64,000 bases of DNA, taken from NCBI RefSeq assembly GCF_988243305.1, contig NZ_OZ547136.1; one strand, 5' to 3'. Position numbers and translations under genes: made by a program. The notes beneath the pieces were generated by a model. The model was given only the letters and a program-made list of their open reading frames with translations, was not told the DNA's origin and did no database searches. This document shows positions 17,258-55,409 of the stretch, piece after piece; within the stretch, counting starts at the first letter, position 1, and each line of letters begins with the position of its first letter.

Positions 17258-20166
<2,909 letters not shown>

Positions 20167-20431: not shown

Positions 20432-20508
20432 GGAGCGGTAGTTCAGTCGGTTAGAATACCTGCCTGTCACGCAGGGGGTCGCGGGTTCGAGTCCCGTCCG
20501 TTCCGCCA
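20432..20508 (+). tRNA. aspU: tRNA-Asp (GTC anticodon), distal gene of the rRNA operon
   Basis: GGAGCGGTAGTTCAGTCGGTTAGAATACCTGCCTGTCACGCAGGGGGTCGCGGGTTCGAGTCCCGTCCGTTCCGCCA. Confidence 0.95.
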
Positions 20509-27789: not shown

Positions 27790-28521
27790 ATGAGCACTGC
27801 AATTACACGCCAGATCGTTCTCGATACCGAAACTACCGGTATGAACCAGATTGGTGCGCACTATGAAGGCCACAAGATCATTGAGATTGGTGCCGTTGAA
27901 GTGGTGAACCGTCGCCTGACGGGCAATAACTTCCATGTTTATCTCAAACCCGATCGGCTGGTGGATCCGGAAGCCTTTGGCGTACATGGTATTGCCGATG
28001 AGTTTTTGCTCGATAAGCCCTCGTTTGCCGAGGTTGCCGATGAGTTCATGGACTATATCCGCGGCGCGGAGCTGGTGATCCATAACGCAGCGTTCGATAT
28101 CGGCTTTATGGACTACGAGTTTTCGTTGCTTAAGCGCGATATTCCGAAGACCAATACCTTCTGTAAGGTCACCGATAGCCTTGCGGTGGCGAGGAAAATG
28201 TTTCCCGGTAAGCGCAACAGCCTCGATGCGTTATGTGCCCGCTACGAAATAGATAACAGTAAACGAACGCTGCACGGGGCATTACTCGATGCCCAGATCC
28301 TTGCGGAAGTTTATCTGGCGATGACTGGTGGGCAAACGTCGATGGCTTTTGCGATGGAAGGAGAGACACAACAGCAACAAGATGAAACAACAATTCAGCG
28401 CATTGTGCGTCAGGCAAGTAAGTTACGCGTTGTTTTTGCGACAGATGAAGAGCTTGCAGCACATGAAGCCCGTCTCGATCTGGTGCAGAAGAAGGGGGGA
28501 AGCTGCCTCTGGCGGGCATAA
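27790..28521 (+). CDS. dnaQ: DNA polymerase III epsilon subunit (3'-5' proofreading exonuclease)
   Basis: 243 aa from [17 protein letters not shown] (Exo I motif); divergent from rnhA as in E. coli. Confidence 0.93.
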
Positions 28522-28653
28522 ATACCTGTAAAAGGCGCTAAAAATAGCGACTTGGGCGATTTTTGCAGCAAACGATTCAAAAGATGAGAAAAACCGTTGA
28601 CGAAGGGTGAGGCAATCCGTAATATTCGCCTCGTTCCCAACGGAACACAACGC

Positions 28654-28730
28654 GGAGCGGTAGTTCAGTCGGTTAGAATACCTGCCTGTCACGCAGGGGG
28701 TCGCGGGTTCGAGTCCCGTCCGTTCCGCCA
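28654..28730 (+). tRNA. aspV: tRNA-Asp (GTC), the island-associated copy
   Basis: Sequence identical to the tRNA-Asp at 20432..20508; followed by a hairpin and T-run at about 28758..28790. Confidence 0.95.
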
Positions 28731-28757
28731 AATTCACTCATGAAAATGAGTTCAGAG

Positions 28758-28790
28758 AACCGCAAGATTTTTAATTTTGCGGTTTTTTTT
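28758..28790 (+). terminator. Rho-independent terminator after the tRNA-Asp
   Basis: agaaccgcaagatttttaattttgcggttttttttgc: stem ccgcaa/ttgcgg followed by T8. Confidence 0.7.
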
Positions 28791-29060
28791 GCATTTAAAT
28801 CCCGCTATTTCTTCGGTCTATGATTTTGTTATGCTGTAAATGTGTTAATCACATATGGTAGACCATATCATTAATATTTAATCATACTATCGAATCATTC
28901 AATTTAAATATATTTGCATGTTATGATTTTCATTTTTCTATTGATTTAATGAATTTATATTTGCTGTTATTTTTGTTTGTTCTGATTCAAGTGGAGTATA
29001 TAATTAAAAATCGTTAGCTAAACATTACCATGATTATGACAGGCGAGGGAGTGTCCGATT

Positions 29061-29846
29061 ATGAATTTAAGAAGGGTTTGTTGTATATGTGTATTATTCT
29101 CGCTGCTTGCAGGATGTGCCTCTGAATCTCCTATTGATGAAAAAAAGAAAAAAACTCAAACCGCACAAAGTTCTATTAATAAAAACGTTCCCCAGCAACT
29201 AACAGACAAAGATTTATATGGTAATGAAACCACACTGGCTGTATCCGAGGAGGATATTCAAGCTGCGCTTGAAGGAGATGAGTTTCGTGTGCCTCTTAAT
29301 TCTCCCGTTATACTTGTTCAGTCTGGCAGTCGCGCACCGGAAACCATTATGCAGGAGGAGATGAGAAAATATTATACAGTTGCCACATTTTCTGGCATTC
29401 CTGACAGGCAAAAACCTGTAACTTGTAATAAAGACAAAAACAAAGATGAAAGTCTGGATGTTGTAGATGCCGAAAATATGAACTGGATGCAGGCATTACG
29501 TTTTGTTGCGGCAAAAGGCCATCAGAAAGCGATTATTGTTTTCCAGGATACGTTGCAGACAGGAAAATATGACTCTGGATTGAAATCAATAGTTTGGTCA
29601 GATTATAAAAATCAAAAATTGACTGACACGATGTCACTGCGTTATTTGGTTCGATTCACGCTGGTGGATGTGGCTACAGGTGAGTGGGCTACCTGGTCGC
29701 CTGTGAATTATGAATCGAAAGTGATTTTTCCGCAGATAGGGAATAAAAATTCTGACAGCCTTGATGTGGCAGAACAGCAGATTTCACAACTTAAGCAGAA
29801 AACGTACGCAGCAGTGGTTAAAGATCTGGTGAATCGCTATCAGTAG
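29061..29846 (+). CDS. yafT: Lipoprotein YafT
   Basis: 261 aa ORF with lipoprotein signal peptide ([12 protein letters not shown]); AT-rich gene immediately after the tRNA-Asp. Confidence 0.75.
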
Positions 29847-30070
29847 TAAGGTTTTATACCAGACGTTTTAATGGTACTTAGCAAGAAAGAGCATTTTCTT
29901 TTCTATTTATACTCTGGTTCAAGTCTGCTAATTAATTCTACATATATATTTTTTTAGGAGTAGTAAAAAACTTTACTAAAGTTATTTATTGTTCTCTCAA
30001 CATATAAGCTGTAGTTCGAGTTTTCGGTTGAACTGTCAAAAATACATCATACACATCTATAAAACAGCAG

Positions 30071-30110
30071 GTACGGTTAATTAAGAATTTTTATTCGTGA
30101 TTAACCGTAC
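30071..30110. terminator. Hairpin terminator at the distal end of the minus-strand T6SS operon
   Basis: gtacggttaat...attaaccgtac: 11 bp perfect inverted repeat, with a U-run on the minus strand (ctgctgtttt) about 70 nt downstream of the hcp stop. Confidence 0.55.
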
Positions 30111-30182
30111 TTTATCATTTTATAATGTTAAATTGCCTTTTTAAAATATAACAATAATGCAGATGAAAAACGCCCAGGTAAC

Positions 30183-30662
30183 TTAGAAAATCCGTTCACT
30201 CCAAAGGCTGTACGCACTGGTTCCGGCGACGCTGTGCTCCCAGTTGATACTCTCATAGGTAAATGACACAGACTCTTCCGGCTGTCCTGGGCTGTCGTTA
30301 ATGGTATGGGGAACGGTAAGGCCGATGTTTGAGATCCGGGCGTTAGTCAGTTTCACCTTGTAGTACGGTTCATTAACACCAAAGCGGTTGGTGCGATAGA
30401 ATACAAAATCACAGGTCAGACATTCATTCTCCGAAATTGCCTTGCCCAGCAGGGGGGAAGATTTGTCCACCGGTTTCGTGATGGTCAGCTCCTGGTGGTT
30501 GACATTCTGCGCCCGGCTCAGACCATGGGACAGTGACGTCACCATGATCTGATCCTGATGTGCAATCTGGGCTTTGTTACCGATGGACGGCATTGACGAG
30601 CATCCGGATGAAATCAGCCCCTGAAGTTCTCCGTTCAGTGTCAGATAGACGGGATTTGCCAT
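30183..30662 (-). CDS. hcp: T6SS tube protein Hcp (TssD), distal divergent copy
   Basis: 159 aa from MANPVYLTLNGELQG with RBS AAGGAGAATAACA upstream; Hcp-like sequence. The upstream 129 codons of tracked ORF 30183..31049 overlap vasL out of frame and are not part of the gene. Confidence 0.8.
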   Translation of the reverse strand: MANPVYLTLNGELQGLISSGCSSMPSIGNKAQIAHQDQIMVTSLSHGLSRAQNVNHQELTITKPVDKSSPLLGKAISENECLTCDFVFYRTNRFGVNEPYYKVKLTNARISNIGLTVPHTINDSPGQPEESVSFTYESINWEHSVAGTSAYSLWSERIF

Positions 30663-30679
30663 TGTTATTCTCCTTAAAC

Positions 30680-32041
30680 TCAATGGGTCGGAGGGACTGG
30701 CACGGTGCTGTTGTCCGTTGCCATATCCTGTCCGGTATTTTTCAGCAACAGCCAGCGGCTTAACAGCCCATCCAGCCGTTGGTTGATCTCTTTTGCTAGC
30801 GCTTGTGTGTCCTGATTCTGCGTGCGGGTCTCCTGGTACTGCGTCAGCATGTACTCCAGTGGAGTTTCCTGATTCAGTAACCGTTCGGCCTGCCAGGTCA
30901 CCGTTTTGATATACGAGAGGGTGAAACCCTGTTTCTCCGTCTCCTTTTTCATCATCAGATCCGCAAAATCCCGCAAATTCTGCCGCGCCTGTTGCCAGCC
31001 CTTCATCTGCGGACTGGCTTGCGCCCGGTTTCTCAGCGTGGTGCTCCACATCCGGCTGGCTTCCTGCTGTTGCAGGCTTTCCGGCCAGAGGGTGTCTGCG
31101 GTGCGCATCATCTGCATTCCGGTTTCCAGCGGCTGTAGCGGTGGGGTATTCAGAAGCTGTTGCAGGTTCTGTTCATATTCTTTCAGTACCGGTGATGCCA
31201 GCCAGACGGTGGCTGCTCCCTGTGTGGTATCCCTGACCTTTGTAAGCTGCCGCTGCATCGGGTACGTCTGCCACCACCAGAGTGCAGCAGCGATAACGGC
31301 AGTACAGGCGGCACCGGCAACAAAACCTTTTACCGTGTCGCCCTGTTTTGCTTTGTCGGCGTTATCTGCCACTCCGCGCACCTCCACCCGCATTTCCGGC
31401 AGGTCGGGTAGGGGGGGCATGGTTTCCGCTGTGGCGGAAGCCGTGCCTTTAGGCGCATAGACCAGCGTTCTGACCATGGTCTGTACCGCCGTAGCAGTAC
31501 GGTTTCTGGGCTGCGGCTCAAACCGCTTGCGTGTGTTCTGCACAAAATAAAGCAGATTTTCCACGCGCGGTTGGCGCTTCAGTTCCACCTGCTGGAGTTT
31601 GTCGCAGATAAGCTGCAAAGCCCGTTCCGTGCGGTAGAGCAACGAAAGATCATTTTCGGAAAAGGAAACCTGCTGGCGCAGGATATTCCCGGTGCGGGTG
31701 TTGAACCAGTCCAGCATCTCAGTCCTCGCCGGGCCACTTTGCGGCCAGAATTTATCCCATTCGTGGGTGATCATCGCAGCTAGCAGTTCCGCGCCTTCAC
31801 AGAACCCTGCCAGTCCCTGATTACGTGTACGTGCCAGCGTATAGTAGGTGGCGGTATGCAAATCCACCCCGTTGGCCTTAAAAATTGACAGCGCCAGCGA
31901 TTCCACTAGTTTCCAGTTCAGCTCCGGCTGTGACGGGTGGTTAGCTTTGTTAATTTCTTCGCGGATGGCGCTGAACTCCGGCAGGGTACGCGGATCGCTG
32001 CCGGTAACGATAGTTTGTGTCAGTACATTGTTGCTCATCAC
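30680..32041 (-). CDS. vasL: T6SS accessory membrane protein with ImpA-N-like domain (VasL/TagA-like)
   Basis: 453 aa; N-terminal region resembles the ImpA_N domain; single predicted TM helix (GFVAGAACTAVIAAALWWW); sits directly after tssM as vasL does in the V. cholerae cluster. Confidence 0.6.
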   Translation of the reverse strand: MMSNNVLTQTIVTGSDPRTLPEFSAIREEINKANHPSQPELNWKLVESLALSIFKANGVDLHTATYYTLARTRNQGLAGFCEGAELLAAMITHEWDKFWPQSGPARTEMLDWFNTRTGNILRQQVSFSENDLSLLYRTERALQLICDKLQQVELKRQPRVENLLYFVQNTRKRFEPQPRNRTATAVQTMVRTLVYAPKGTASATAETMPPLPDLPEMRVEVRGVADNADKAKQGDTVKGFVAGAACTAVIAAALWWWQTYPMQRQLTKVRDTTQGAATVWLASPVLKEYEQNLQQLLNTPPLQPLETGMQMMRTADTLWPESLQQQEASRMWSTTLRNRAQASPQMKGWQQARQNLRDFADLMMKKETEKQGFTLSYIKTVTWQAERLLNQETPLEYMLTQYQETRTQNQDTQALAKEINQRLDGLLSRWLLLKNTGQDMATDNSTVPVPPTH

Positions 32042-32049
32042 TAACCCCC

Positions 32050-35000
32050 TTAATACAACGTATCCGGTAAACGGAATTGGCTGAACAGACCACCGGTGAA
32101 CGGGTTATCTTCGGTATCCACATGCACCCGATAAACCATCGCGCCGCCGTCCACGTTAAAGCGCACGTTAAAGGTGTCACTGGTCACGTTGGTCAACTGG
32201 CCCGCGCCGAACAGGCGGAACTGCGCCCACGGTCCACTGAAAGCGATACTGCGCGGTGCTCCACCGCTGGTGCCAACCAGCGTCAGCTTGCTTTCATTGC
32301 CTTCACGCATGTTGTTTGGCCAGACCAGATGGGCGGTATAGTTGCGTCCCTGGCTGTAGTCCACTAACTGGCCGTCCAGGTTAAGTACGCTGCGCCGTTT
32401 ATTGCCGGAAAGCGACACCGTTTCCACGGCAAATTGTGTGCCCAGCCCGTTCTGCTGGCTGAAGAAGATGTCGCGGATTTTTTGCGCGGTATCCAGTTGT
32501 TGTCGGATATCTTCACGGATCAGCACTCTGCCGTCGTCGCCAAAGGTCAGATCGTTTTCAAGGAACAGTCGCAGGTTGTCCTTATAGAAATTGTCCAGAA
32601 TGCCATCCGGTTTAAAGAAACGTTCAAACGCATCCAGTGAGGCATCCTGTGAGGCGCGTGGATTAAACGGATAGTTACCGGCAAGCTGTTCGTTGAAGGG
32701 TTTCACTACATTGTCGCGCCAGTCCACTTCCATGTAATGAACAGCTTCCACCATCACCACGTGCCAGGCCTGATCCGCCAGCTTGCCCACCCAGCGGTTA
32801 AGCGGTGCAGGCAGGGTTTTTGCCATCTGGCGGGTGGCGAAGATTGGATCGCTGCTGTTTTGATCCAGGCGTAGCTGCACTGCTTTCAGCGCCGATTTTC
32901 CCGGCACTGGCGAGTTCTGGATCGCCAGCAGGTAACGGTGCAGCTCGGTCAGTTGCTGGTACACGGCCTGTAGCGTACTCGCCTTGTCCTTTTGCTCCTC
33001 CAGTGCGCTGTTTTCCGGTGCGAACTCATGCCCCAGCCGGGACAACAGGCGGTAATCCATCTCATTTATCACCGCTTCCCGCGCCTTATCGTCCAGTTTG
33101 CCGGAGAGCGTCAGCGCGTGTGTATTATCGCGCAGCGCCGTCAGCGCACGCTGGAATGGCTGATCGCCGCTGATAATCTGCTCCAGCGCGTCGGTCAGCG
33201 CCGGCATGGCCTCATAGTCACGGACGTTGAGATTATCCATTCCGGCACGCCATGTAGCGGTATAGTCACTGAGGTACTGTTCAGTGATATGGCGCTGGAT
33301 CTCTTCACGGTCGGCCTCGCTGTAGGCGACGCTTTGCGTCAGGTTCAGCACCCACGAATCCAGCGCGGTCAACTCAACGAGACCGTCGTGTTGTTTGATA
33401 AAATAGCTTTGCAGGCCATAGCGGGTGAGAAACTGCGGGATCACCAGTTTTTCATCATTACCGGCGACGAACACGTTGTCGAAGGTGGGACCAACCTGGT
33501 CGCGCAAATTCAAATCGGCGGGCAACACGCTTAATGCTTTGGTGCGTAGGGTCTGGTAGACACGCTGGTATATCGGCAGTTTGCTCAGTTCATGTTGCGC
33601 ATTAATGACCGGTTTATCATAGGGTGTCCAGCGGCTGATGGCGTCGCTGTCGCCGCTCTGGCGCTGCGCGTGCCAGTCGGTGTGTTCCAGCGCATAGTCC
33701 AGATGTGCCATCAGTTGCGCCTGAATATCACGCTGGCCGTGAAATTCATTGCTCCAGCGCCGCGCCATGTACTGTTTTACCGCCTCGTTGTTGCGCCCAC
33801 TTTTGTCTTCCATCATGCGCACTACGCGCAGCACGGCGAGTTTTTCTTCACTCTCAGGCGGGGCATTGTTCAGATCCCGGATCAGGCCGTTCATTAACGA
33901 GGGGAGATAACGCTGCTCAAGAAGCTGAATGTAGGTTTGTTCCACATATGGCCCTACGCGGACGCCCTGGTACAATCCCATATCCGCCAGAAAACCGTGA
34001 TCGCGGTAATCGCCGTAGGCGAGGGTGGCATCGCGTACCGGGTTGAGTAACGGCAGTTGCAGATTGCCGAATTCATCCTTTCCCTGCGGTGGTGGTACGT
34101 CCATAAAGGCTTTAGCCTGTGCCAGTACGTTAACGCCGGACTGCCAGTTCTGGTTGTAATAATGGTGCCAGCTTCCGACCAGCAATGCCGCCAGTGCCGC
34201 GCCACAGGCGGAAAAGGCGGTCAGCCTGCGCCGGGAGCTGTTCAGCCAGACGCTGTTTTCACCTGCAAGGTTTGGCTCGGCTAGCAGGACTTCCGGGAAG
34301 AGGCGGCGGGTGAAATACGGCGTTGTTTCCACCAGGGGCCAGGTCGCCAGCGAGCTGTTGCCCAGCCCGTACTGGCGGGCGGCGGACTGCGTGAAAATAT
34401 CATCCACCTGGCCGCGCTGTAGCGAGGATGTGAGCCAGACGCCGCGCAGCATCACATCCATATTCTCGCCGTCCAGCAATGCGGCGAGCAGTGAAGTGAC
34501 GATTTCTCCCGTTCCCTGCATCTGACGGGAGAAGCTGAACACGGCGCTGCGTAGCGCAGCACCGGTCTGCACGAGCATCAGGTCTGACAGGGCCAGGTTC
34601 ATCTGTTGTCCCCAGGTCTGCCAGAAGGTGCTCAGCTCGCTGCGCCAGTCATCGTTTTCATGAGCGCGGCGGGTAAACGTGACGCCGAGGATCGCGTCGC
34701 GGTCTTTTTTATCCAGTGAATGGAACAGCGCGGCAAAGCCGGTCAGTAGATCCAGCCGGGTCAGCACCACATAAACGGGCAACCGGCAGTGCAGGCACTG
34801 GCGAATTTCCTGAAGTTGCTGACGCAGATTTTGTACCAGTGCTTCGCGACGGAGTTTATCCGCCGTCAGCAGTTCGGGAAGATCGAGCGTCAGGATCAGA
34901 CCATTGAGCGGCTGGCGTGCGCGCGTTTCCATCAGCCAGCCCAGCCAGTGTTCGCGCAGGCGGCGGTGGAGCAGATCATCCCCGCCGGGGGAGGTCAGTA

Positions 35001-35577
35001 CGCCGTCAACATCGAAAATTACTGCCTGGTTGCCCACTCGCGGTGTGATCAGCGGATGATATTCCACACCCCGGATGCTTTCCGGCATGTAAATAATGTC
35101 AGACGGAAAGCCCTCGCGCAGCAGCGTGCTTTTGCCGCTACCCGCAGGACCAATGACCATATACCACGGCAACTGCCACAGATAACTGCGGTTATCCAGA
35201 TGGCGGCGCAGGCGCAGCAGCCAGTGATCCAAATATTGCTGCTGGTGGTGGAGTTCCACGGTCAACGGATCTTTTTCTTCCTCCCGCTGCTGTTTCTGCT
35301 GTTTTTCCAGCTTTTGCAGACGCTTCATTACCCGCCAGGTGAGCCAGACCAGAGCGATAAGCCCCCAGACGGCGGTCGCCAGCCAGCGGTTTGCCAGCGG
35401 AGCCAGCCAGTGCTGCTCATAGAGCGTCCATTTTGGACCCTGCCACCAGATCCACACCAGCAGAAAAATCCATGCCAGCGCCAGCAGCCAGGCGGCGGAT
35501 ACCTTGAATCGCGGCATCGCTGGCCTGAGCGCAGATCTCAACGAGCTGAACAGTCGGGATGTGGGAAATTTGAACAC
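32050..35577 (-). CDS. tssM: T6SS membrane-complex protein TssM (IcmF/VasK)
   Basis: 1175 aa; N-terminal TM helices and Walker A motif GPAGSGKST; size and position match TssM. Exact start uncertain. Confidence 0.9.
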   Translation of the reverse strand: MFKFPTSRLFSSLRSALRPAMPRFKVSAAWLLALAWIFLLVWIWWQGPKWTLYEQHWLAPLANRWLATAVWGLIALVWLTWRVMKRLQKLEKQQKQQREEEKDPLTVELHHQQQYLDHWLLRLRRHLDNRSYLWQLPWYMVIGPAGSGKSTLLREGFPSDIIYMPESIRGVEYHPLITPRVGNQAVIFDVDGVLTSPGGDDLLHRRLREHWLGWLMETRARQPLNGLILTLDLPELLTADKLRREALVQNLRQQLQEIRQCLHCRLPVYVVLTRLDLLTGFAALFHSLDKKDRDAILGVTFTRRAHENDDWRSELSTFWQTWGQQMNLALSDLMLVQTGAALRSAVFSFSRQMQGTGEIVTSLLAALLDGENMDVMLRGVWLTSSLQRGQVDDIFTQSAARQYGLGNSSLATWPLVETTPYFTRRLFPEVLLAEPNLAGENSVWLNSSRRRLTAFSACGAALAALLVGSWHHYYNQNWQSGVNVLAQAKAFMDVPPPQGKDEFGNLQLPLLNPVRDATLAYGDYRDHGFLADMGLYQGVRVGPYVEQTYIQLLEQRYLPSLMNGLIRDLNNAPPESEEKLAVLRVVRMMEDKSGRNNEAVKQYMARRWSNEFHGQRDIQAQLMAHLDYALEHTDWHAQRQSGDSDAISRWTPYDKPVINAQHELSKLPIYQRVYQTLRTKALSVLPADLNLRDQVGPTFDNVFVAGNDEKLVIPQFLTRYGLQSYFIKQHDGLVELTALDSWVLNLTQSVAYSEADREEIQRHITEQYLSDYTATWRAGMDNLNVRDYEAMPALTDALEQIISGDQPFQRALTALRDNTHALTLSGKLDDKAREAVINEMDYRLLSRLGHEFAPENSALEEQKDKASTLQAVYQQLTELHRYLLAIQNSPVPGKSALKAVQLRLDQNSSDPIFATRQMAKTLPAPLNRWVGKLADQAWHVVMVEAVHYMEVDWRDNVVKPFNEQLAGNYPFNPRASQDASLDAFERFFKPDGILDNFYKDNLRLFLENDLTFGDDGRVLIREDIRQQLDTAQKIRDIFFSQQNGLGTQFAVETVSLSGNKRRSVLNLDGQLVDYSQGRNYTAHLVWPNNMREGNESKLTLVGTSGGAPRSIAFSGPWAQFRLFGAGQLTNVTSDTFNVRFNVDGGAMVYRVHVDTEDNPFTGGLFSQFRLPDTLY

Positions 35578-35596
35578 AGTAACTCCTTGTTATCTT

Positions 35597-37039
35597 TTAC
35601 TGTTCTGCCGTGAATTTTTGTTCCAGTGCTTTCAGCAGGGAAGGCTCCCATTCGGGTAGCATCATGTGTAAGCCTGTTTTGAAGAGCATCCGGTACTGCT
35701 GTTGTGCAAGCTGAACCATACCGGCTTCTTCCAGTAACTGCGCGCCGAAAAATTGGCGATGAAACTGGTTACGGGGATCACCTTCGGGCAGGTTTTCCAG
35801 ATACCGCAGCGCGGTTTCCAGCCCGTTCTCATCGAAGCACGCCCTGGCCGCCTGTAATTCTTCATCGGTCTGTACAGCTGCTGCGGTTTGGTTGCCTGAG
35901 CCCGATGGTGCCAGCCACTGTTTCGTCTGTTCGGACACAAACGGAGTGCGGTCGTTAAACAACAGGTTGATCAGTGCGGGCAGGCGAGCAAGAAAACTGG
36001 TAACTTCATCACGGATAGCATCCGCCACCTGTATATAACCAAGGCGCAACGCGGTCTGTGCTGAGAGGTAATGGCCGTCCAGCCAGTACGGGGCCAGCAG
36101 CAGGCTTTTTTCCACCTGCTGCCAAAGCGCCATGTCGGCATTGTTCAGTCGCGCCAGATAGTCATCCATCATATCTACAGGGAAAGCAGCCAGAGGGGTC
36201 CGGCCATCGCTTTCTGCCTGCGGGGTACTGGTGATGGTCTGCCACAGCGCATGGCGGCGCAGGCGGTAACCCAGCGGTGACTCCGGCTGACGTTCACAGA
36301 GAATGGCGGCTACCTTCAACAGGGTGTCGCGCCATGCTTTATCATCGTGGCTGTCCACGGTGACCTGCGGGATTGGAGTGGCTGCAACAGGAGGCTGAGC
36401 GGAAACTGTGTGCGGTAACATATCCGGTGCAGATCCGGTCGTGGCCTGCGGCGCAATGGCGGCGGTTCGTGCAGATGATGGCATTTCAGGCGCTACATCA
36501 CGAAACGCGCGCTGAAACAGAGTAAATAAATCGTCTGTCGCCTTAGCCAGCTCAGGCGCGTTGTGCGCCTGCCAGCACAGTGCCAGTTTTGCCAGCTCTC
36601 CCAGCAAAGCATCGCGCTGTGTTGTCACAGCATTCCCGGCAAAGTCATGAATGGCCGACTCAAAGCGTTTTATCACTTGGGTGGCGAAGCGTTTTTTGTG
36701 GGCCATGTTCTGCGGCGCGGCGCATGTCCAGTAGTGCTCTGTATATTGTGTCAGTATCCTGGAGGCCAGCAGAATATCACCGGCATGTTGCAGGGTACGC
36801 AGCAGGTGGGCCAGCAGGCGAAAATCTTTGGTTTCTGAGGCCAGAAGCATCAGGCCCCGGCGCTGAAGTTCGGGGATATCAAGCTGGCTGTGCGCCAGTG
36901 AACCGAGCTTGACGATTTCGCTGTCGATAAACTCCCAGTCTGCATTGCCATCATCAAGCGCGGCGGACAGCTTATCTTCCGGCAGGTTTTCCAGCAGGTG
37001 TGCAAGCCATATATCAGGATTACGTAAGTCCATTGCCAT
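35597..37039 (-). CDS. tssA: T6SS protein TssA (VasJ; ImpA N-terminal domain)
   Basis: About 480 aa from MAMDLRNPDIWL with RBS AGGAGA; start lies 5 nt from the vasI stop. Confidence 0.8.
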   Translation of the reverse strand: MAMDLRNPDIWLAHLLENLPEDKLSAALDDGNADWEFIDSEIVKLGSLAHSQLDIPELQRRGLMLLASETKDFRLLAHLLRTLQHAGDILLASRILTQYTEHYWTCAAPQNMAHKKRFATQVIKRFESAIHDFAGNAVTTQRDALLGELAKLALCWQAHNAPELAKATDDLFTLFQRAFRDVAPEMPSSARTAAIAPQATTGSAPDMLPHTVSAQPPVAATPIPQVTVDSHDDKAWRDTLLKVAAILCERQPESPLGYRLRRHALWQTITSTPQAESDGRTPLAAFPVDMMDDYLARLNNADMALWQQVEKSLLLAPYWLDGHYLSAQTALRLGYIQVADAIRDEVTSFLARLPALINLLFNDRTPFVSEQTKQWLAPSGSGNQTAAAVQTDEELQAARACFDENGLETALRYLENLPEGDPRNQFHRQFFGAQLLEEAGMVQLAQQQYRMLFKTGLHMMLPEWEPSLLKALEQKFTAEQ

Positions 37040-37043
37040 ATTT

Positions 37044-37787
37044 TTATTCTCCTGCCCAGTGGCAGGCGTCGCGTAGCGGCGCAATAACCCGCGCCAGCCC
37101 GTCAATGTTAAAGGTCAGCTTTCCGGCAGCATTGTCTGTGCCGGTATCAACCGTCAGTGTTTTAGCAGCGAATAGTTGCTTAATTTCATCAATACCGGAT
37201 AACCCCCGGCTGGACTCCAGCAGGGTGCCGTTCTCGCGCACAAACCAGTGGCTGCGCAATGCCCGGCTGTCGGCATTCAGGGTGACGGCGATATCATGGA
37301 CATCCAGAGGATGCATCAGCGCCACCTGCATCCGGGTGATATTGTCCACGCAACTGAACATCAGCACCGGGCGCGGCGGAACATGACCGATAGCCGGGGT
37401 GGTTATCACTACCGTCGGGCGTTCACCCGGCACCTGCGTCACCAGCAGCTCTGTGGTGCTGCCCTGGCGGCGTTTTTCCTGCTCTGTGGCGCGGGTCCAG
37501 GCTTCGCCCACAAAGCTGGCTTTGACCAGTGCGGCGTTGCCGAAGCCGGGCTGTTCCGGTGCAAGAATGCGGTCATAACAGTCAAGCCGCTCCAGCGCCG
37601 CAGATTCCCGCCGACAGGACTGCATGGCCTGTAACGTGGCTGTCGCATCCGGCGGGGGCGTGGTGGCGACGGCGACCGCCGCACCGGCCATTGACGATGT
37701 TTCTGCGGGCGCGGCACTGGCGGGTAAGCCCGCCATCAGGCCCGCGATAAACCATCCTGCCTGCCGGAAAACGCGCAACCTGCTCAT
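37044..37787 (-). CDS. vasI: T6SS-associated protein VasI family (signal-peptide protein)
   Basis: 247 aa; N-terminal signal-like segment (AGLMAGLPASAAPA); lies between clpV and tssA, the position of vasI in V. cholerae. Confidence 0.6.
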   Translation of the reverse strand: MSRLRVFRQAGWFIAGLMAGLPASAAPAETSSMAGAAVAVATTPPPDATATLQAMQSCRRESAALERLDCYDRILAPEQPGFGNAALVKASFVGEAWTRATEQEKRRQGSTTELLVTQVPGERPTVVITTPAIGHVPPRPVLMFSCVDNITRMQVALMHPLDVHDIAVTLNADSRALRSHWFVRENGTLLESSRGLSGIDEIKQLFAAKTLTVDTGTDNAAGKLTFNIDGLARVIAPLRDACHWAGE

Positions 37788-47760: not shown

Positions 47761-49245
47761 TTATTCCTTATCCAGTCGTCCGACCAGGCTCAGGTCGAAA
47801 CTGGCACCCATGTATTTAAAATGCGGTCTGACAGAAATCGCGACCTGGTACCAGCCCGGCTCACCATCCACATCCAGTACCTCGATCTTAGCCTGACGCA
47901 AAGGCCGGTGGCTGCGGACTTCGGCAGGCGGATTTTCCTGGTCAGCAACATACTGGCGAATCCAGGTGTTCAGCTCACGCTCCAGGTCACTACGTTCTTT
48001 CCATGAGCCAAGCTGTTCGCGCTGAATTACCTTGATGTAATGCGCTAACCTGCTGATAACAAACAAGTATGGCAGCTGGGTGCCGAGTTTATAGTTGGTC
48101 TCCGCAGCCTTGCCTTCGGGGGTTTTGGGGAATGTTTTGGGTTTCTGCACCGAGTTGGCCGAGAAAAAGCACGCATTATCAGACCCTTTACGCATGGTCA
48201 GTGTGATAAAGCCCTCTTCCGCCAGCTCATACTCTCTCCGGTCAGTGATCAACACTTCAGTCGGAATTTTTGCCTGCATTTGCCCCATGGATTCATACAG
48301 ATGCACCGGGAGGTCTTTGACTGCGCCGCCGCTGGAAGGGCCAATAATATTTGGGCACCAGCGATACTTAGCAAAACTTTCCGCCAGGTTGGCGGCCAGT
48401 AAAAACGAGGTATTCCCCCACAGATAAGACTCATGACTCTGGCTGACATCTTCATGGTAACGGAAGGTTTTGACAGGGTTTTCATCCGGTGAGTAAGGGT
48501 GGCGCAGCAGGAACCGGGGGGCGGTCAGGCCCAGGTAACGGGAATCTTCCGATTCACGCAGGGCGCGCCAGCGGGAGTAGGCCGGGCCTTCAAAGATGGC
48601 ACCCGGTTCTTTGATCCCCGGTAACTCTGTCCATGAATCCAGACCGAAAAATTCGGATGATACTGACGACAGGAACGGGCTGTGCGCCATCGCGCTGACC
48701 TGGCTGATATATTTCAGCAACTTCATATCCGGCGTGGTGTTCTTAAAGGCAAAGTTGCCGATTACCGCCGCCACTGGCTCACCGCCAAATTGTCCGTAAC
48801 CGCTTGAATATACATGCTTGTAATACGCAGACTGCGTGATTTCAGGTGCAAATTCGAAATCATCCAGCAGTTCTTCCTGAGTGACATTCAGGAAATGGAC
48901 TTTGATGTTTTCCCGTGTATCCGCGCGTTCAACCAGCAGCTTCAGCGAGCGCAGCAGGGATTCCAGTTCCTGAAACTCCGGGGCATGAATAATGGCATCC
49001 ATCTGCCTGCTGGTTCGGGCATCAATATCAGCAATCATGGCGTCAACGGCCAGGATATTGATAGGTTCAGCGCTACTGTCGCCCTGTAACATGGCGGCAA
49101 TAAAGGCGCTCACGCCCTGGCGGGTGATATCGTAGCTTTCTGATTTAGGCTGGACGCGGGTTTGCGCCATGATTTCATCAAGCAGAGATGGGGGCGCGGC
49201 GGTTTGAGACGCGCTGACGGGAGCAATTTCTTCCTTTACTGACAT
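47761..49245 (-). CDS. tssC: T6SS contractile sheath large subunit TssC (VipB)
   Basis: 494 aa; highly conserved sheath protein length and position. Confidence 0.93.
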   Translation of the reverse strand: MSVKEEIAPVSASQTAAPPSLLDEIMAQTRVQPKSESYDITRQGVSAFIAAMLQGDSSAEPINILAVDAMIADIDARTSRQMDAIIHAPEFQELESLLRSLKLLVERADTRENIKVHFLNVTQEELLDDFEFAPEITQSAYYKHVYSSGYGQFGGEPVAAVIGNFAFKNTTPDMKLLKYISQVSAMAHSPFLSSVSSEFFGLDSWTELPGIKEPGAIFEGPAYSRWRALRESEDSRYLGLTAPRFLLRHPYSPDENPVKTFRYHEDVSQSHESYLWGNTSFLLAANLAESFAKYRWCPNIIGPSSGGAVKDLPVHLYESMGQMQAKIPTEVLITDRREYELAEEGFITLTMRKGSDNACFFSANSVQKPKTFPKTPEGKAAETNYKLGTQLPYLFVISRLAHYIKVIQREQLGSWKERSDLERELNTWIRQYVADQENPPAEVRSHRPLRQAKIEVLDVDGEPGWYQVAISVRPHFKYMGASFDLSLVGRLDKE

Positions 49246-49267
49246 ACTGAAAATCCTTCTGTGAAAA

Positions 49268-49771
49268 TTATTTCTGAACGGCGATACCCAGTTCCTGGAT
49301 CAGCTGCTCGCGGCTGTCTTCGTTTTCCAGTAGCGCCTGAAGTTGTGCGCGGAAGGCCGGAATATTGCCTAGTGGAGACTTAAGTGCGACCAGTGCCTCA
49401 CGCAGCTCCAGCAGGCGCTTTATTTCCGGCACCTGACTGGCAATATGGTCAGGAGAAAGGTCATCCATAGATTTGACTTTCAGGTTGACGTACATTTGCT
49501 CATTGGGAGCGTCACTGAGTTCAGCCGGAACAACAAACTCCCGTTCAATGTCAGCTTCTGAAATGACTGCGTTGAGGTTATAGCGGTTGATAGCAATGGC
49601 AGTTCGCTCATCCAACGGCGTGTTATCTGGTTTCCCTTTCAGATTGCCGGTGATCAATAAATTCAGCGGCAATTCGATATCAGCAGCCACCCCATCAACT
49701 TTTGGTGTATACCGAACGCTGATTCTTTCTTTCGGCGCGACACTGCCGCCATTGTTGTTCATTTTGCTCAT
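49268..49771 (-). CDS. tssB: T6SS contractile sheath small subunit TssB (VipA)
   Basis: About 167 aa from MSKMNNNGGSVAPKERISVRYTPK; first gene of the minus-strand operon. Confidence 0.9.
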   Translation of the reverse strand: MSKMNNNGGSVAPKERISVRYTPKVDGVAADIELPLNLLITGNLKGKPDNTPLDERTAIAINRYNLNAVISEADIEREFVVPAELSDAPNEQMYVNLKVKSMDDLSPDHIASQVPEIKRLLELREALVALKSPLGNIPAFRAQLQALLENEDSREQLIQELGIAVQK

Positions 49772-49822
49772 AAAAATGTTCCCGTTCAGGCCATGAGCAC
49801 AGCATTTTCGTACTGCATACAA

Positions 49823-50474
49823 ATACCGACAATACCGTTTCAGTGGCAGTTAGATAATGTAACCTTCTTTCTGTTGTGATCGGTATTCTACTCATGAAAT
49901 AAAATATTAAAAGAACTATTTATATTTTTGAAAGAGATGTATCCTTCATTATTAATACATGATAGTGAAATCAATTTTGGTATTTATAGACTTGGTGAAT
50001 ATAATTTTACGGCCAATAAAGTGCAATAACACATTGATTTATATGTGTTTATTAAATTGATTAATAAGTTTTGTGTATGGTTTTATAAATTAGTTAATTG
50101 CTAGCAATACATCATAAGAAATTCCTTTAAGGAATATCTTAATTGCGTGCAGGAACGATGGTGAAGTAAGTGTTGTAATAATTTATTTTTGACGAAACTG
50201 TAGGTTTTTATGGGGATAAGGATACGTTATGGATAATTCTACTGTTGATGTTGATATATTTTTAGCTTATGTGACCGTGTTCTGAAATTGACTAAAAATA
50301 TATTTAAACACCATAAAAGAGTTTTTCGGTAGGTGCTAATTACGTGTGCCTGTAACTCGAATAAAGAAAAGGGTGTGGTTCCTGATGTGAGCCGCATCAC
50401 ACTCTAACCTGTCGGGGATTAACGACGGGTTGTTCGTAAAAACAGCAGTTGATAATTTCACAAGGAGTTCACAA
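49823..50474. promoter_or_regulatory. AT-rich divergent control region between tssB (minus) and hcp-vgrG (plus)
   Basis: About 650-700 bp strongly AT-rich non-coding spacer between the two divergently transcribed T6SS units; contains a GATC at 49878..49881 and AT-rich tracts; no individual promoter elements confidently assigned. Confidence 0.6.
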
Positions 50475-50993
50475 ATGCCAACCCCATGTTACATTTCTAT
50501 TACGGGCCAGACCCAGGGGAACATCACTGCCGGTGCTTTCACCGCGGATTCTGTCGGCAATATCTACGTGCAGGGGCACGAAGATGAAATGCTGGTGCAG
50601 GAGTTTTTGCACAACGTTACTGTTCCAACCGATCCGCAGTCTGGCCAGCCTTCCGGCCAGCGCGCGCACAAACCGTTCATTTTCACCGTGGCGCTGAACA
50701 AAGCCGTTCCGCTGCTGTACAACGCGCTGGCCTCCGGTGAAATGCTGCCGAAAGTGGAGCTGCACTGGTGGCGTACTTCAGTTGAAGGCAAGCAGGAGCA
50801 CTACTTCACCACACGTCTTACTGACGCGACGATTGTGGACATGAACCTGCACATGCCGCACTGCCAGGACCCTGCACAGCGTGAGTTTACGCAATTGCTC
50901 GCAGTATCACTGGCATACCGTAAGGTTGAGTGGGAGCACATCAAATCCGGTACTTCTGGTGCCGATGACTGGCGTGCACCGCTGGAAGCATAA
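50475..50993 (+). CDS. hcp: T6SS tube protein Hcp (TssD), canonical copy
   Basis: 172 aa from MPTPCYISITGQTQGNITAGAF with RBS AAGGAG; strong resemblance to the canonical Hcp as remembered from V. cholerae. Confidence 0.92.
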   Translation: MPTPCYISITGQTQGNITAGAFTADSVGNIYVQGHEDEMLVQEFLHNVTVPTDPQSGQPSGQRAHKPFIFTVALNKAVPLLYNALASGEMLPKVELHWWRTSVEGKQEHYFTTRLTDATIVDMNLHMPHCQDPAQREFTQLLAVSLAYRKVEWEHIKSGTSGADDWRAPLEA

Positions 50994-51213
50994 ATCTGAG
51001 TCAACAACATCCTGCCTTCGTGCAGGATGTTGTTTTTGTACGTGTAAAAAATGAGTGTCAGTAAGGAGTTACGCTTTCATGAGGGAGATGGCGGATGCCG
51101 GAAACCCGGGCGGTAGCGTACCTGAAAATGTAAAGATGAGTGTAACGCTGCACTGGCACCCTTTGCTGCATGGTGAGAATCATTTGGTCCGTGAATAAAT
51201 CAGGGGGGTCATT

Positions 51214-53196
51214 ATGTCCTTAAAAGGTCTGCGCTTTACGCTGGAGGTTGACGGCCAGGAGCCGGACACCTTTGCAGTGGTGAATTTCAGGTTAATCCAG
51301 AACCAGTCATATCCGTTTGTGATGAGTGTGGATGTTGCCAGCGACTCTTTTATGCAGACGGCGGAGATGCTGCTGGAGAAGAAGGCGACACTGACCATCT
51401 GGCAGGGCGCAGTGGCGCAGCGTTATGTCACCGGCGTGGTGGCGGGTTTTGGCATGCAGGAGAATAACGGCTGGCAGATGCGTTATCACCTGCGTATTGA
51501 GCCGCCGTTATGGCGGTGCGGGCTGCGGCAGAACTTCCGTATCTTCCAGCAGCAGGATATCCGGACGATATCGGCCACGTTACTGAACGAGAACGGCGTC
51601 ACGGAGTGGACGCCGCTGTTTTATGAGGACCATCCGGCGCGGGAGTTCTGTGTCCAGTACGGGGAGTCGGACCTGGCGTTTCTGTCCCGGCTGTGGGCGG
51701 AGGAGGGAATTTTCTTCTTTGAGCGGTTTGCGGCGGACAGTCCGGAGCAGAAGCTGACGCTGTGCGACGATGTGGCGGGGCTGTCACAGGCGGGAGAGCT
51801 TCCGTTTAACCCGGACACATCGACAGGAGCGGAGACGGAGTGTGTCAGTATGTTCCGTTATGAGGCGCATGTCCGCCCGTCGTCGGTGCAGAGCCAGGAT
51901 TACACGTTTAAGGTGCCGGACTGGCCGGGGATGTATGAGCAGCAGGGTGAGAACCTGAACGGACAGCTGGCGCAGTATGAGATATTTGATTATCCGGGAA
52001 GGTTCAAGGACGAGCAGCACGGCAAGGATTTCACGCTGTACCAGATGGGCAGCCTGCGCAGTGATGCGGAAAAGGCCACAGGGCAGAGTAATTCACCGAA
52101 GCTGTGGCCGGGAACGCAGTTTACGCTGACGGGGCATCCGCAGAAGATGCTGAACCGTGAATGGCAGGTGGTACAGAGCATACTGTCAGGAAGCCAGCCG
52201 CAGGCGCTGCACGGCAGCCAGGGGAGAGGAACCACGCTGGGAAATCAGTTAGAGGTGATACCGGCAGACCGGACGTGGCGTCCACGGCTGCAAAGCAAAC
52301 CGAAGGTGGACGGGCCACAGAGCGCCATTGTCACCGGGCCTGCGGGAGAGGAAATCTTCTGCGACGAACATGGCCGGGTACGGGTGAAGTTCCACTGGGA
52401 CCGTTATCACGGGATGACGGAGGCGAGTTCATGCTGGGTGCGGGTATCGCAGGCGTGGGCGGGGCCGGGTTTCGGCAATCTGGCGATACCGCGGGTGGGT
52501 CAGGAGGTGATTGTTGATTTCCTGAACGGCGACCCGGACCAGCCGATAATCATGGGACGGACATACCATGAGGACAACCGTTCGCCGGGGAGTCTGCCGG
52601 GGACGAAGACGCAGATGACGATACGGTCGAAGACCTATAAAGGAAGCGGATTTAACGAACTGCGCTTTGAGGACGCCACAGATAAGGAACAGGTCTATAT
52701 TCACGCGCAGAAGAACATGGATACGGAAGTGCTGAATGACCGGACGACGGACGTGAAGCATGACCACACGGAAACCATTGGTAACGACCAGAAGATAACG
52801 GTGGGGTTGGGCCAGACGGTGAATGTGGGGAGCAAAAAGGAAGGTGGTCATGACCAGAAAGTGACGGTAGCGAACGATCAGCATCTCACGATAAAAAATG
52901 ACCGGCACAAGGTTGTAAATAACAACCAGACAAGCAAGGTGACGGGAACTGATACCGAAGAAGTCGTCAAAAAACAGAGTATTAAAATAGGTGATAATTA
53001 CGAACTGAAAGTTGAGCATGGTACAAAAATCATATCTGGGGACAGTATTGAGCTAATTTGTGGGCAGGGAGAGAGCGGGACTTGTTCCATAAAACTGGAG
53101 AAAACAGGAAAGATAATAATACGGGGGACGGAGTTTCTATTTGAGGCTACCGGTCCTGTAGATATTAAAGGAAAAGATATTCATCTGAACGGATAG
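51214..53196 (+). CDS. vgrG: T6SS spike protein VgrG (TssI), no C-terminal toxin extension
   Basis: 660 aa; gp27/gp5-like VgrG; C-terminal repeats (HDQKVTVANDQHLTIKNDRHKV); the 3' about 350 nt are visibly AT-richer than the rest. Confidence 0.92.
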   Translation: MSLKGLRFTLEVDGQEPDTFAVVNFRLIQNQSYPFVMSVDVASDSFMQTAEMLLEKKATLTIWQGAVAQRYVTGVVAGFGMQENNGWQMRYHLRIEPPLWRCGLRQNFRIFQQQDIRTISATLLNENGVTEWTPLFYEDHPAREFCVQYGESDLAFLSRLWAEEGIFFFERFAADSPEQKLTLCDDVAGLSQAGELPFNPDTSTGAETECVSMFRYEAHVRPSSVQSQDYTFKVPDWPGMYEQQGENLNGQLAQYEIFDYPGRFKDEQHGKDFTLYQMGSLRSDAEKATGQSNSPKLWPGTQFTLTGHPQKMLNREWQVVQSILSGSQPQALHGSQGRGTTLGNQLEVIPADRTWRPRLQSKPKVDGPQSAIVTGPAGEEIFCDEHGRVRVKFHWDRYHGMTEASSCWVRVSQAWAGPGFGNLAIPRVGQEVIVDFLNGDPDQPIIMGRTYHEDNRSPGSLPGTKTQMTIRSKTYKGSGFNELRFEDATDKEQVYIHAQKNMDTEVLNDRTTDVKHDHTETIGNDQKITVGLGQTVNVGSKKEGGHDQKVTVANDQHLTIKNDRHKVVNNNQTSKVTGTDTEEVVKKQSIKIGDNYELKVEHGTKIISGDSIELICGQGESGTCSIKLEKTGKIIIRGTEFLFEATGPVDIKGKDIHLNG

Positions 53197-53302: not shown

Positions 53303-54349
53303 ATGATAGAAATGAAAAATAACACACCATTTCCTTTGTTGTCATTTGAAAAATATGGTCGTTATGGTCTTTTGTTTGATGTTATTGCTATTAAAATGTC
53401 ATTGCGAATTAAAAATGGATTTTATGCTGATCTTGCTGAGTTTCAAAAAGAATTGTCCATGTCTGATGAATACTATGGGGAGTCTGAAACAAGTAGTCTA
53501 AAATCTGAAACAGACTTAGTTCTTTGTAAAAGAAATACAGATATTCACGTGACAGGTAGTGCTCATGCCCCTCCAGGGGATAAGTCTAAGTGGAAGGCTT
53601 GTGTGAGGGTTAATAGTTTTTCTAAAGAACTGAGTTTATCTGGTGTCCGCTACTTACAATATGAGCGAAATCGTTGGCAGATGAGCTTACCAGATAAAAT
53701 TATTAATGTTCCTCTACGCTATGAGCTTGCTTACGGTGGTATTTGGCAACCAGATGGTATGGAGAAATTGGTTTTTTCAGCAAACCCTGTAGGTTGTGGA
53801 TATTATCCTGATATTTCTCAACTTAATACAAGTTGTCAATATAAACTCCCACAAATAACCAGCTCTGCTTTGTCAGAAAACGCTACCATTTTTAATGGGG
53901 AATCTGACTTTTTTCAAGGTGTTGGCCCTGTATCTCGATGGTGGAAAAGTCGCCTCCAGTATGCAGGAACCTACAATGAAGTATGGCGTGAAAAGCGCTA
54001 TCCCTATTTGCCGGATGATTTTGATGAGCGGTTCTACAATAGTGCTCATCCGGATATGATATACACGGGGTTTCTCTCTGGCGATGAAAACATCTCTCTT
54101 GAAGGTTTTTTTAAATTTGAACAGGTTGTTAAGACAAAATTGCCAGGTATACGACCTGTACTTATATTAAAAACCAAGCATAATACATCACATATGTTCT
54201 TACCTGTTGCGGATACAATGGTTATCGATTTAAGTCGACAGGAAATATACCTTACCTGGAGATTAACAATACCTGATTTTTTTGGAATGAAAGAAGGAGT
54301 GCTGAGTTGTATTATTCCTGAATGTATAGGGAAAAAATATTATGGGTAA
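53303..54349 (+). CDS. Putative T6SS adaptor protein (DUF2169-like)
   Basis: 348 aa AT-rich gene immediately downstream of vgrG and translationally coupled (8 nt overlap) to a PAAR-like effector gene, the canonical DUF2169 context; assignment is by context and size, not verified by search. Confidence 0.5.
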   Translation: MIEMKNNTPFPLLSFEKYGRYGLLFDVIAIKMSLRIKNGFYADLAEFQKELSMSDEYYGESETSSLKSETDLVLCKRNTDIHVTGSAHAPPGDKSKWKACVRVNSFSKELSLSGVRYLQYERNRWQMSLPDKIINVPLRYELAYGGIWQPDGMEKLVFSANPVGCGYYPDISQLNTSCQYKLPQITSSALSENATIFNGESDFFQGVGPVSRWWKSRLQYAGTYNEVWREKRYPYLPDDFDERFYNSAHPDMIYTGFLSGDENISLEGFFKFEQVVKTKLPGIRPVLILKTKHNTSHMFLPVADTMVIDLSRQEIYLTWRLTIPDFFGMKEGVLSCIIPECIGKKYYG

Positions 54350-55382
54350 CTATCATATCGGGGATGGTGAATGTAGATTTAGAGTCGTGTGTTCTTCACC
54401 AGATGTATGTGAAGTAGGAGGTTACAAGGTTCCTTTTGACAGTTACCAGACTTTAGATAGTGAAAGACAGTACAGTTCAACGGTATGGGCGCGTGGATGC
54501 AGAGCTTTAAATGTTGGTTCAGTGATTGCTGGAACTCAAAGTAATGCCGGTAAAGGTGTCATATCCGGTACATCTCAAGGAACGGGTGACTGTGTTATTT
54601 TAACGGGAAGTCCGACTGTAACAATAGAAGGGAAACCTGTTGCTTATCATGGTTCAGTTGTTGGGATTAATAACCATAACTGCCTTGGTAAATTGTATAC
54701 CAAAATAAAATCACCAATGATTTCTGTCATTGATAAAACTTTTAGTTATGAAAGGACTGCTGAAGTAATACACGATTTACTGCTTCTGAAGGATCTCCTT
54801 TCTGTTGGGAATATTTTGGGCGGAGATATTTCACCTGAGGTTAAAAATGATTTATTTCAAATAAAAGATCCTGACCAATCATGGGGGGAGTTTTTTTCAA
54901 TAAAGAATATCAGAGAATCTCTCAGGAATGGTATTGAAGGAGATAAATCTCAGATCAGAGAATGGTTTGGAGAGAACACACTTACTCAAATGGGCAATGG
55001 AGCAATCACCACTTTACATGGTGTGGCGGATTTAGCCTTAGTTACATTCGATGCTCTGTTAGATACGGCAACGGCAACGGTTGCTTGCCCGATAGGCGAA
55101 GATGGGTTATGTGAACAGGCAAATATAAATTTAAATGAAAAAGAACAGGCTTTATTTAATATTAGTAATTCATTGATAAATGGGCAAGCATGGGATGCAC
55201 TTAAAAAAATGATAATGGATACAAATAATGGTGATCAGATTGCTCTGGAGCATTTTGCCAGCTTTTTATGGGGCTTTATGATACCCGCAAAAATACCAGA
55301 AGAAAATATCTCTGGGAAAGTATTTGTAGAGCCAGTAGTTTTAGAAGGTGGTGCTGGTGGCAATTGGACAGTATTTGATTAG
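54342..55382 (+). CDS. PAAR-like (DUF4150-type) T6SS effector, N-terminal and linker portion; ends at an in-frame TAG
   Basis: 346 aa; N-terminal about 125 aa with the DUF4150-like pattern (GTGDCVILTGSPTVTIEGKPVAYHGSVVGINNHNCLG); helical central region; the stop TAG at 55380..55382 is in frame with the following toxin-like ORF. Confidence 0.6.
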   Translation: MGNYHIGDGECRFRVVCSSPDVCEVGGYKVPFDSYQTLDSERQYSSTVWARGCRALNVGSVIAGTQSNAGKGVISGTSQGTGDCVILTGSPTVTIEGKPVAYHGSVVGINNHNCLGKLYTKIKSPMISVIDKTFSYERTAEVIHDLLLLKDLLSVGNILGGDISPEVKNDLFQIKDPDQSWGEFFSIKNIRESLRNGIEGDKSQIREWFGENTLTQMGNGAITTLHGVADLALVTFDALLDTATATVACPIGEDGLCEQANINLNEKEQALFNISNSLINGQAWDALKKMIMDTNNGDQIALEHFASFLWGFMIPAKIPEENISGKVFVEPVVLEGGAGGNWTVFD

Positions 55383-55409
55383 GTTTTAGATTCAAATGTA
55401 ATAAAGCAA

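Follow-up and report, generated by a model that had tools for sequence, protein, structure and literature searches.

We analysed a stretch of 64,000 nucleotides from contig NZ_OZ547136.1 (RefSeq assembly GCF_988243305.1; hereafter the window) and conclude that positions 29850–58589 are very probably the variable island of the Escherichia coli aspV–yafV site, bearing a type VI secretion system (T6SS) of the T6SS2 kind (T6SSi1) and a cargo module, in which an intact apparatus, PAAR-like tip and immunity gene accompany a toxin that is most likely not delivered. The cluster at 30183–53196 is a real and complete T6SS, far exceeding what chance could explain, and the effector gene cpe1 behind it is interrupted by an amber codon.

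Gene content was derived from a six-frame listing of open reading frames (ORFs) and from NCBIfam profile scans with curated cut-offs. Fifteen close-packed genes run along the minus strand from 49771 down to 30183, followed by hcp and vgrG on the plus strand, in the order that an earlier sequence-only reading of this DNA had given (bit scores are each set against the cut-off of the profile):

49268–49771, minus strand: tssB (vipA), small subunit of the sheath, opening the minus-strand operon (TIGR03358, 172 bits vs 97)
47761–49245, minus strand: tssC (vipB), large sheath subunit (TIGR03355, 676 bits vs 271)
47331–47756, minus strand: tssE, gp25-like baseplate gene (TIGR03357, 133 bits vs 53)
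45484–47325, minus strand: tssF (vasA), baseplate (TIGR03359, 547 bits vs 260)
44471–45520, minus strand: tssG (vasB), baseplate (TIGR03347, 350 bits vs 143)
43174–44454, minus strand: tagH (fha/vasC), FHA-domain accessory protein (TIGR03354, 423 bits vs 120)
42653–43177, minus strand: tssJ (vasD), outer-membrane lipoprotein (TIGR03352, 142 bits vs 31.6)
41304–42650, minus strand: tssK (vasE), baseplate (TIGR03353, 417 bits vs 100)
40526–41281, minus strand: tssL (dotU/vasF) (TIGR03349, 216 bits vs 90, profile 1–211 of 211)
37784–40516, minus strand: tssH/clpV, sheath-recycling AAA+ ATPase (TIGR03345, 1122 bits vs 885)
37044–37787, minus strand: vasI accessory gene (TIGR03360, 263 bits vs 124)
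35597–37039, minus strand: tssA (vasJ) (TIGR03362, 452 bits vs 230, full profile)
32050–35577, minus strand: tssM (icmF/vasK), inner-membrane subunit of the membrane complex (TIGR03348, 946 bits vs 388, profile 2–1168 of 1168)
30680–32038, minus strand: vasL/evfB-like accessory gene of the TagA class (ImpA_N domain, hydrophobic segment, VasL domain)
30183–30662, minus strand: hcp (tssD) copy A, 159 residues, last gene of the minus-strand operon (TIGR03344, 202 bits vs 58.9)
50475–50993, plus strand: hcp (tssD) copy B, 172 residues (TIGR03344, 209 bits vs 58.9)
51214–53196, plus strand: vgrG (tssI), 660-residue spike protein, without a C-terminal effector domain (TIGR03361, 606 bits vs 186)

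All 13 core families (TssA to TssM) together with TagH and VasI exceeded the curated cut-offs with essentially complete coverage of the profiles, the models being of the equivalog type for TssA, B, C, E, F, G, H, J, K and M, of the subfamily type for TssD and of the subfamily_domain type for TssI and TssL. The vasL product, which scores under the TssA cut-off, was recognised through its two Pfam domains (ImpA_N, 1e-19; VasL, 3.4e-25), and its orthologue in E. coli 536 is annotated as 'VasL domain-containing protein'; T6SS families were recovered for every conserved component. The tssM translation contains the Walker A motif GPAGSGKS, the tssL product consists of the DotU domain alone without an OmpA-like extension, and hcp copy B is preceded by an AAGGAG ribosome-binding site at 50462–50467. 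The two Hcp proteins share only ~30% identity, copy A being 95.6% identical to its 536 orthologue.

None of the 17 T6SS genes contains an internal stop, and the intergenic gaps on the minus strand range from −37 to +22 bp when starts are placed as in the annotated orthologues. Gene lengths equal those of the 536 orthologues except for tssM (1175 vs 1155 residues) and clpV (910 vs 920 residues), and the 20 additional TssM residues, as called, reflect the choice of start codon. The sequence-only reading had held that all 13 core components are intact and that the system looks functional. The former was borne out by the profiles and the uninterrupted reading frames; the latter stands for the apparatus, which looks functional and would be genetically competent judging from its genes, and fails for the island's own effector gene, whose nonsense mutation lies just past the point at which that reading had ended the system.

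The three ORFs of the cargo module gave no match in the NCBIfam scan and were named by comparison with annotated E. coli genomes, PDB entries and Pfam:

53303–54349, plus strand: DUF2169 adaptor gene for a PAAR-like effector, product 99.1% identical to the 536 protein
54342–55781, plus strand: cpe1, interrupted, colinear with a 479-residue gene of 536
55756–56046, plus strand: cpi1, the Cpe1 immunity gene, intact, product 96/96 identical to PDB 9L5U chain C ('Cpi1')

In 536, the counterpart of the adaptor is annotated as 'DUF2169 family type VI secretion system accessory protein' and that of cpe1 as 'PAAR-like domain-containing protein', with a 96-residue protein downstream; the 479-residue gene bears the name cpe1 in S88 and N1. 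The window differs from the 536 gene by 11 nucleotide substitutions, including G to T at 55380, which turns codon 347 from Glu (GAG) into amber (TAG, 55380–55382). Codons 1–346 encode the PAAR-like carrier, and the resulting 346-residue product matches Pfam Tox-PAAR-like over residues 15–115 (8e-12), as expected of a PAAR-like/DUF4150 protein. The papain-like cysteine-protease toxin domain is encoded by codons 348–479, downstream of the stop, where the codon for the catalytic Cys362 is present and the encoded domain is identical to PDB 9L5U_A at 131/132 residues. Owing to the TAG at codon 347, carrier and Cys362 toxin domain do not lie in one polypeptide. The start of cpi1 overlaps the 3' end of cpe1.

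Cpe1 of E. coli ATCC 11775 has been described as a T6SS-delivered papain-like cysteine protease with the catalytic residue Cys362, which cleaves GyrB and ParE and is neutralised by Cpi1, and the pair mediates interbacterial competition from the homologous locus of that strain (Song et al. 2025, PMC12136450). The cargo region of ATCC 11775 is 98.3% identical to that of the window. A sequencing error was considered as the origin of the stop and ruled out: the same 346-residue product is annotated in the complete genomes of NY1601 and Z1323HEC0462, and 185 public contigs carry its exact sequence, compared with at least 1000 for the full-length 536 allele. Since the product recurs in two independent complete genomes and on these contigs, the mutation is real and fixed in a lineage.

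Assembly and firing of a T6SSi follow established steps, and the genes of the window would supply them in the following way. TssJ, TssL and TssM would form the envelope-spanning membrane complex, and TssE, TssF, TssG and TssK together with VgrG the baseplate; TssA would prime polymerisation of the Hcp tube within the TssB/TssC sheath. Contraction of the sheath would then drive the Hcp/VgrG/PAAR spike and any attached toxin into a neighbouring cell, ClpV would disassemble the contracted sheath for recycling, and TagH, VasI and the TagA-like VasL would act as accessory proteins. The PAAR-like tip of Cpe1 is expected to be mounted on VgrG with the help of the DUF2169 adaptor, the intended cargo being the cysteine protease that would cut GyrB and ParE of the target cell while Cpi1 would shield the producer. 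In the strain of the window, amber codon 347 splits toxin from carrier in the reading frame and most likely uncouples the two, with the consequence that the toxin encoded by the cluster would no longer be delivered while immunity is kept. The truncated Cpe1 probably still caps the spike.

Several points weigh against this account of a working apparatus with an uncoupled toxin. The truncated Cpe1 might misfold or fail to mount on VgrG, lowering the efficiency of firing, and effectors encoded elsewhere in the genome, beyond the window, could supply the system with toxins. Translation of the toxin domain might in principle begin at TTG 55410, which lies five codons ahead of Cys362 and is the only in-frame start candidate upstream of it. 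In addition, a promoter scan of the spacer between tssB and hcp copy B, described below, returned 3 sigma-70-like sites vs 3.6 expected by chance. As for TTG 55410, no Shine-Dalgarno sequence is seen ahead of it, which makes independent translation of an active toxin unlikely.

That start codon belongs to a broader proposal, by which the split cpe1 is functional and Cpe1 is delivered: its toxin would be made as a product of its own (TTG 55410 being one candidate start) and loaded non-covalently, or would be produced by readthrough of the amber codon. Papain-like toxins are found fused to PAAR, VgrG or Rhs carriers or, in other species, as separate downstream genes (PMC12136450). The stop sits precisely where the crystallised toxin domain (residues 348–479) is about to begin, that domain differs from 9L5U at a single residue out of 132, cpi1 is retained, and the allele is present on all those contigs. 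Against this, the allele is one base change away from the common 479-residue fused gene, the missing Shine-Dalgarno sequence applies here as well, the NCBI annotation begins the downstream ORF at Met370, past the catalytic Cys362, and an adaptor for a free toxin is absent. We therefore consider a functional split gene extremely doubtful. It is also highly unlikely, in our estimate, that the amber allele, seen with an intact T6SS2, PAAR-like tip, DUF2169 adaptor and Cpi1, marks a lineage that selection keeps in a 'disarmed but immune' state or one that delivers the toxin domain as separately translated cargo. If the lineage were kept in the former state, its T6SS would still fire and it would resist Cpe1-armed kin, free of the cost of the toxin and of its delivery; either form of uncoupling, if true, would be a natural separation of an effector from its carrier that is kept by selection rather than simple decay.

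Decay is itself an explanation to be weighed, namely that the cluster is intact on paper and in fact a silent relic without a role in fitness, with effector loss as the onset of pseudogenisation. The premature stop in cpe1 would fit such a course, as would the insertion of ISEc31 inside vgrG of the closest relative, NY1601, and the tssA pseudogene in the homologous cluster of enterohaemorrhagic E. coli (EHEC) Sakai, where degeneration of T6SS-2 has been described (PMC12981562). The other subclass, T6SSi2, decays too, with ISEc12 interrupting tssM in ST131 (PMC12282107), and it was by deletion of hns that Song et al. raised T6SS activity in their donor. What makes a relic unlikely is that the 17 T6SS ORFs have remained full length and free of stops and frameshifts despite ~4% base divergence from 536, a pattern expected of purifying selection, and that neither the PAAR-like domain nor the DUF2169 adaptor nor cpi1 is disrupted. 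It is a somewhat unlikely, though not negligible, alternative that the system serves mainly in interaction with host cells (adhesion, invasion, survival within macrophages) and not in killing bacteria. Reviews attribute T6SS2 to pathogenesis, and such a role has been proposed in RS218, in avian pathogenic E. coli and in EHEC (PMC6730261, PMC5363993, PMC12981562): deletion of the RS218 cluster (evfB to hcp1) made the bacteria less able to bind and invade brain endothelial cells, Hcp1 and Hcp2 have distinct roles in that strain, and T6SS-2 of EHEC secretes the catalase KatN. Two hcp genes in the same divergent arrangement are found in the window. On the other hand, the only cargo encoded by the island is the antibacterial pair Cpe1/Cpi1, whose role in competition between bacteria was shown for the homologous locus of ATCC 11775, and a eukaryote-directed effector is not visible in the window.

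With the apparatus intact and the toxin uncoupled, as we read it, the nonsense mutation predicts a lineage that is unable to use the GyrB/ParE-cleaving toxin and is yet immune to it. The allele should be useful for reading competition phenotypes and in comparisons of T6SS effector repertoires between E. coli lineages, and a strain bearing the island may take part in contact-dependent competition or in interaction with a host.

The two transcription units of the cluster diverge from an AT-rich region:

49772–50474, no strand: divergent regulatory spacer between tssB and hcp, 703 bp, 32% GC (guanine plus cytosine), defined by sequence and GC

This spacer probably contains promoters in both directions. 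Its AT-richness, together with the use of a Δhns strain for the T6SS of ATCC 11775, suggests silencing by H-NS, and it is on these grounds a probable H-NS-silenced region. In the competition assays concerned, a Δhns ATCC 11775 donor served to up-regulate the T6SS (Song et al. 2025, PMC12136450).

The island lies beside a chromosomal tRNA gene, and the following features mark its two borders:

28654–28730, plus strand: aspV, tRNA-Asp (GTC), found by ARAGORN and by the Rfam tRNA model, the chromosomal landmark beside the island
29061–29846, plus strand: yafT, lipoprotein gene, found in K-12 too and outside the variable segment
56300–58589, plus strand: island tail with ISAs1 (H-repeat) pseudogene fragments, a 167-residue ORF and a DUF2859 gene, from the 536 and NY1601 annotations, Pfam and the K-12 comparison

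The position next to tRNA-Asp claimed by the sequence-only reading holds, with 1.45 kb between aspV and the cluster and yafT in between, and aspV is placed identically in K-12, 536 and NY1601. Homology with K-12 stops at 29849, just past yafT, and restarts at 58590, before yafV. The yafT region (28731–30182; 35% GC) is conserved in K-12, so that the variable segment begins after yafT and not at the tRNA. The tss operon has 56% GC and the cargo region 37%, the whole window 51%. Adjacency to a tRNA, absence from the K-12 reference and deviating GC are together those of a tRNA-associated genomic island. No integrase gene is present in the annotations of the identical or near-identical loci (536, NY1601); 16–24-mers from the 3' end of aspV match only the two tRNA-Asp genes in the window, giving no direct repeat; and the Rfam scan of the whole window returned only rRNA, tRNA and StyR-44, with no match within the island. 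In the island tail, the 167-residue ORF (57296–57799) has no Pfam match, and the DUF2859 gene (57889–58377), an 'integrating conjugative element protein', encodes a signal-peptide-like N-terminus. Outside the island, the window contains a complete rrn operon at 15270–20508 (16S, tRNA-Ile, tRNA-Ala, 23S, 5S), with the second, aspU-like tRNA-Asp after it at 20432–20508 and the StyR-44 match at 17142–17250 in the spacer ahead of 23S.

In place of 29850–58589, K-12 has 1.2 kb of unrelated DNA between yafT and yafV, comprising ykfM, yafU and the ISAs1 fragment yafF. The sequence-only reading had called the cluster strain-variable and had granted K-12 only remnants at this site; the variability relative to K-12 was upheld, the remnants were not. 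We considered ykfM (480 nt, the length of hcp) and yafU as possible T6SS remnants and ruled them out: neither shows similarity to the window by blastn or tblastn. As ykfM and yafU are unlike the window, K-12 has no T6SS remnant at the aspV–yafV site, and the only sequence common to both is the ISAs1 fragment (89.6% identity to 56848–57125). The two K-12 genes (4258–5085 of the K-12 stretch) are small and membrane-protein-like. Being unrelated to the window, they indicate that the aspV–yafV hot spot carries alternative cargo in different strains.

To estimate how widespread the cluster is, 30183–53196 was compared by megablast with 5426 complete E. coli genomes: the matches covered at least 80% of the query in 575 of these, and the distal half (hcp to clpV) reached at least 80% coverage in 2647. 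The island places the strain in the large share of E. coli, about half of strains, with T6SS2/T6SSi1 at aspV. The matches include uropathogenic E. coli 536 (96.1% identity, 242.7–265.8 kb, beside aspV), F11 and many human and animal isolates, and the same cluster occupies the same site in NY1601 and Z1323HEC0462 (99.9–100% identity). From its collinearity, its site and the published nomenclature, the cluster is identified as the E. coli T6SS2/T6SSi1 at aspV. This island was described in 2010 as PAI I in the LF82 genome paper, which reported two tssD genes, tssH, tssI and two tssA-like genes in LF82, UTI89, S88 and 536 (PMC2941450). The EHEC cluster has been named T6SS-2 (PMC12981562), and E. 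coli T6SS2 has been assigned to subclass T6SSi1 (PMC12282107). The RS218 cluster, delimited 'from evfB to hcp1' (PMC6730261), is of the same type as that of the window. The cluster, its location, gene order, two Hcp paralogues and effector–immunity pair have thus all been published, and the system is an ordinary one; its sole strain-specific feature is the cpe1 amber allele, a minor variant.

Compared with the islands of extraintestinal pathogenic and adherent-invasive E. coli (536, UTI89, S88, LF82, RS218 and ATCC 11775), the window has the same site (aspV–yafT ... yafV–ivy), an identical set of 17 T6SS genes with unchanged order and orientation and the same cargo tail (DUF2169–cpe1–cpi1–ISAs1), and differs in the amber codon at cpe1 residue 347. 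DNA identity is 96.1% for the core, against 536, and 98.3% for the cargo; at the protein level, tssK to tssB are 98–99.8% identical to 536, whereas hcp-A to clpV, at 92–95%, represent a more divergent allele. The T6SS-2 of EHEC O157:H7 Sakai (ECs_0217–0236/Z0250–Z0267) shares the aspV site and the collinear order, and its ClpV, VasI and Hcp-B are 90–94% identical to those of the window, in contrast to TssE (43%), TssB (56%), TssG (57%), TssF (59%) and TssK (61%). Sakai further differs from the window by a small additional ORF that separates tssC from tssB, by the tssA pseudogene and by Rhs elements as cargo in place of DUF2169–Cpe1, and the Sakai stretch examined showed no terminal hcp copy A. 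The mosaic divergence in both comparisons suggests recombination between T6SS2 alleles. The Cpe1–Cpi1 pair of Song et al. 2025 (PDB 9L5U) comes from the same locus in ATCC 11775, and differs in that the window's frame is broken between carrier and toxin.

The vgrG gene, intact in the window, is a site of variation among close relatives. In NY1601, whose core is 100% identical, ISEc31 occupies 31374–32587 of the stretch compared. Z1323HEC0462 (stretch 28033–35678) has a further module of 5.7 kb (vgrG, DUF4123, PAAR and two hypothetical proteins) between two vgrG copies, which are almost identical over their 5' 1.35 kb; the single vgrG of the window corresponds to this shared 5' part joined to the 3' end of copy 2. 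The arrangement fits gain or loss of a module through recombination between vgrG repeats.

The V. cholerae-like gene order put forward by the sequence-only reading holds from vipA to vasL, with one gene missing and with hcp and vgrG placed inside the cluster. The V. cholerae large cluster runs VCA0107 vipA, 0108 vipB, 0109, 0110 vasA, 0111 vasB, 0112 fha, 0113 vasD, 0114 vasE, 0115 vasF, 0116 clpV, 0117 vasH, 0118 vasI, 0119 vasJ, 0120 vasK, 0121 vasL, 0122 vasM and 0123 vgrG-3 (PMC4441509, Table 1), and the window mirrors VCA0107–0121, from tssB through vasL, apart from vasH. In V. cholerae vasH (VCA0117), a sigma-54 activator gene, stands between clpV and vasI; in the window these two genes share 4 bp, so that vasH has no place between them and is absent, and no gene is named as a sigma-54 activator in the island annotations of 536 or NY1601. 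Likewise, vasM has no counterpart in the window, where hcp comes after vasL and a second hcp stands with vgrG divergent from tssB, whereas the hcp genes of V. cholerae lie in auxiliary clusters. The effectors differ as well, being Cpe1 in the window and VgrG-3, VasX and TseL in V. cholerae. In the sheath, TssC of the window matches the solved VipB (3J9G_B) with an E value of 7e-219, which speaks indirectly for subclass T6SSi1, and its two best PDB matches, 5MXN and 5OJQ (E ~1e-234), titled simply 'Type VI secretion protein', are V. cholerae sheath structures. We take the large cluster of V. cholerae to be of subclass T6SSi1, the same as that of the window.

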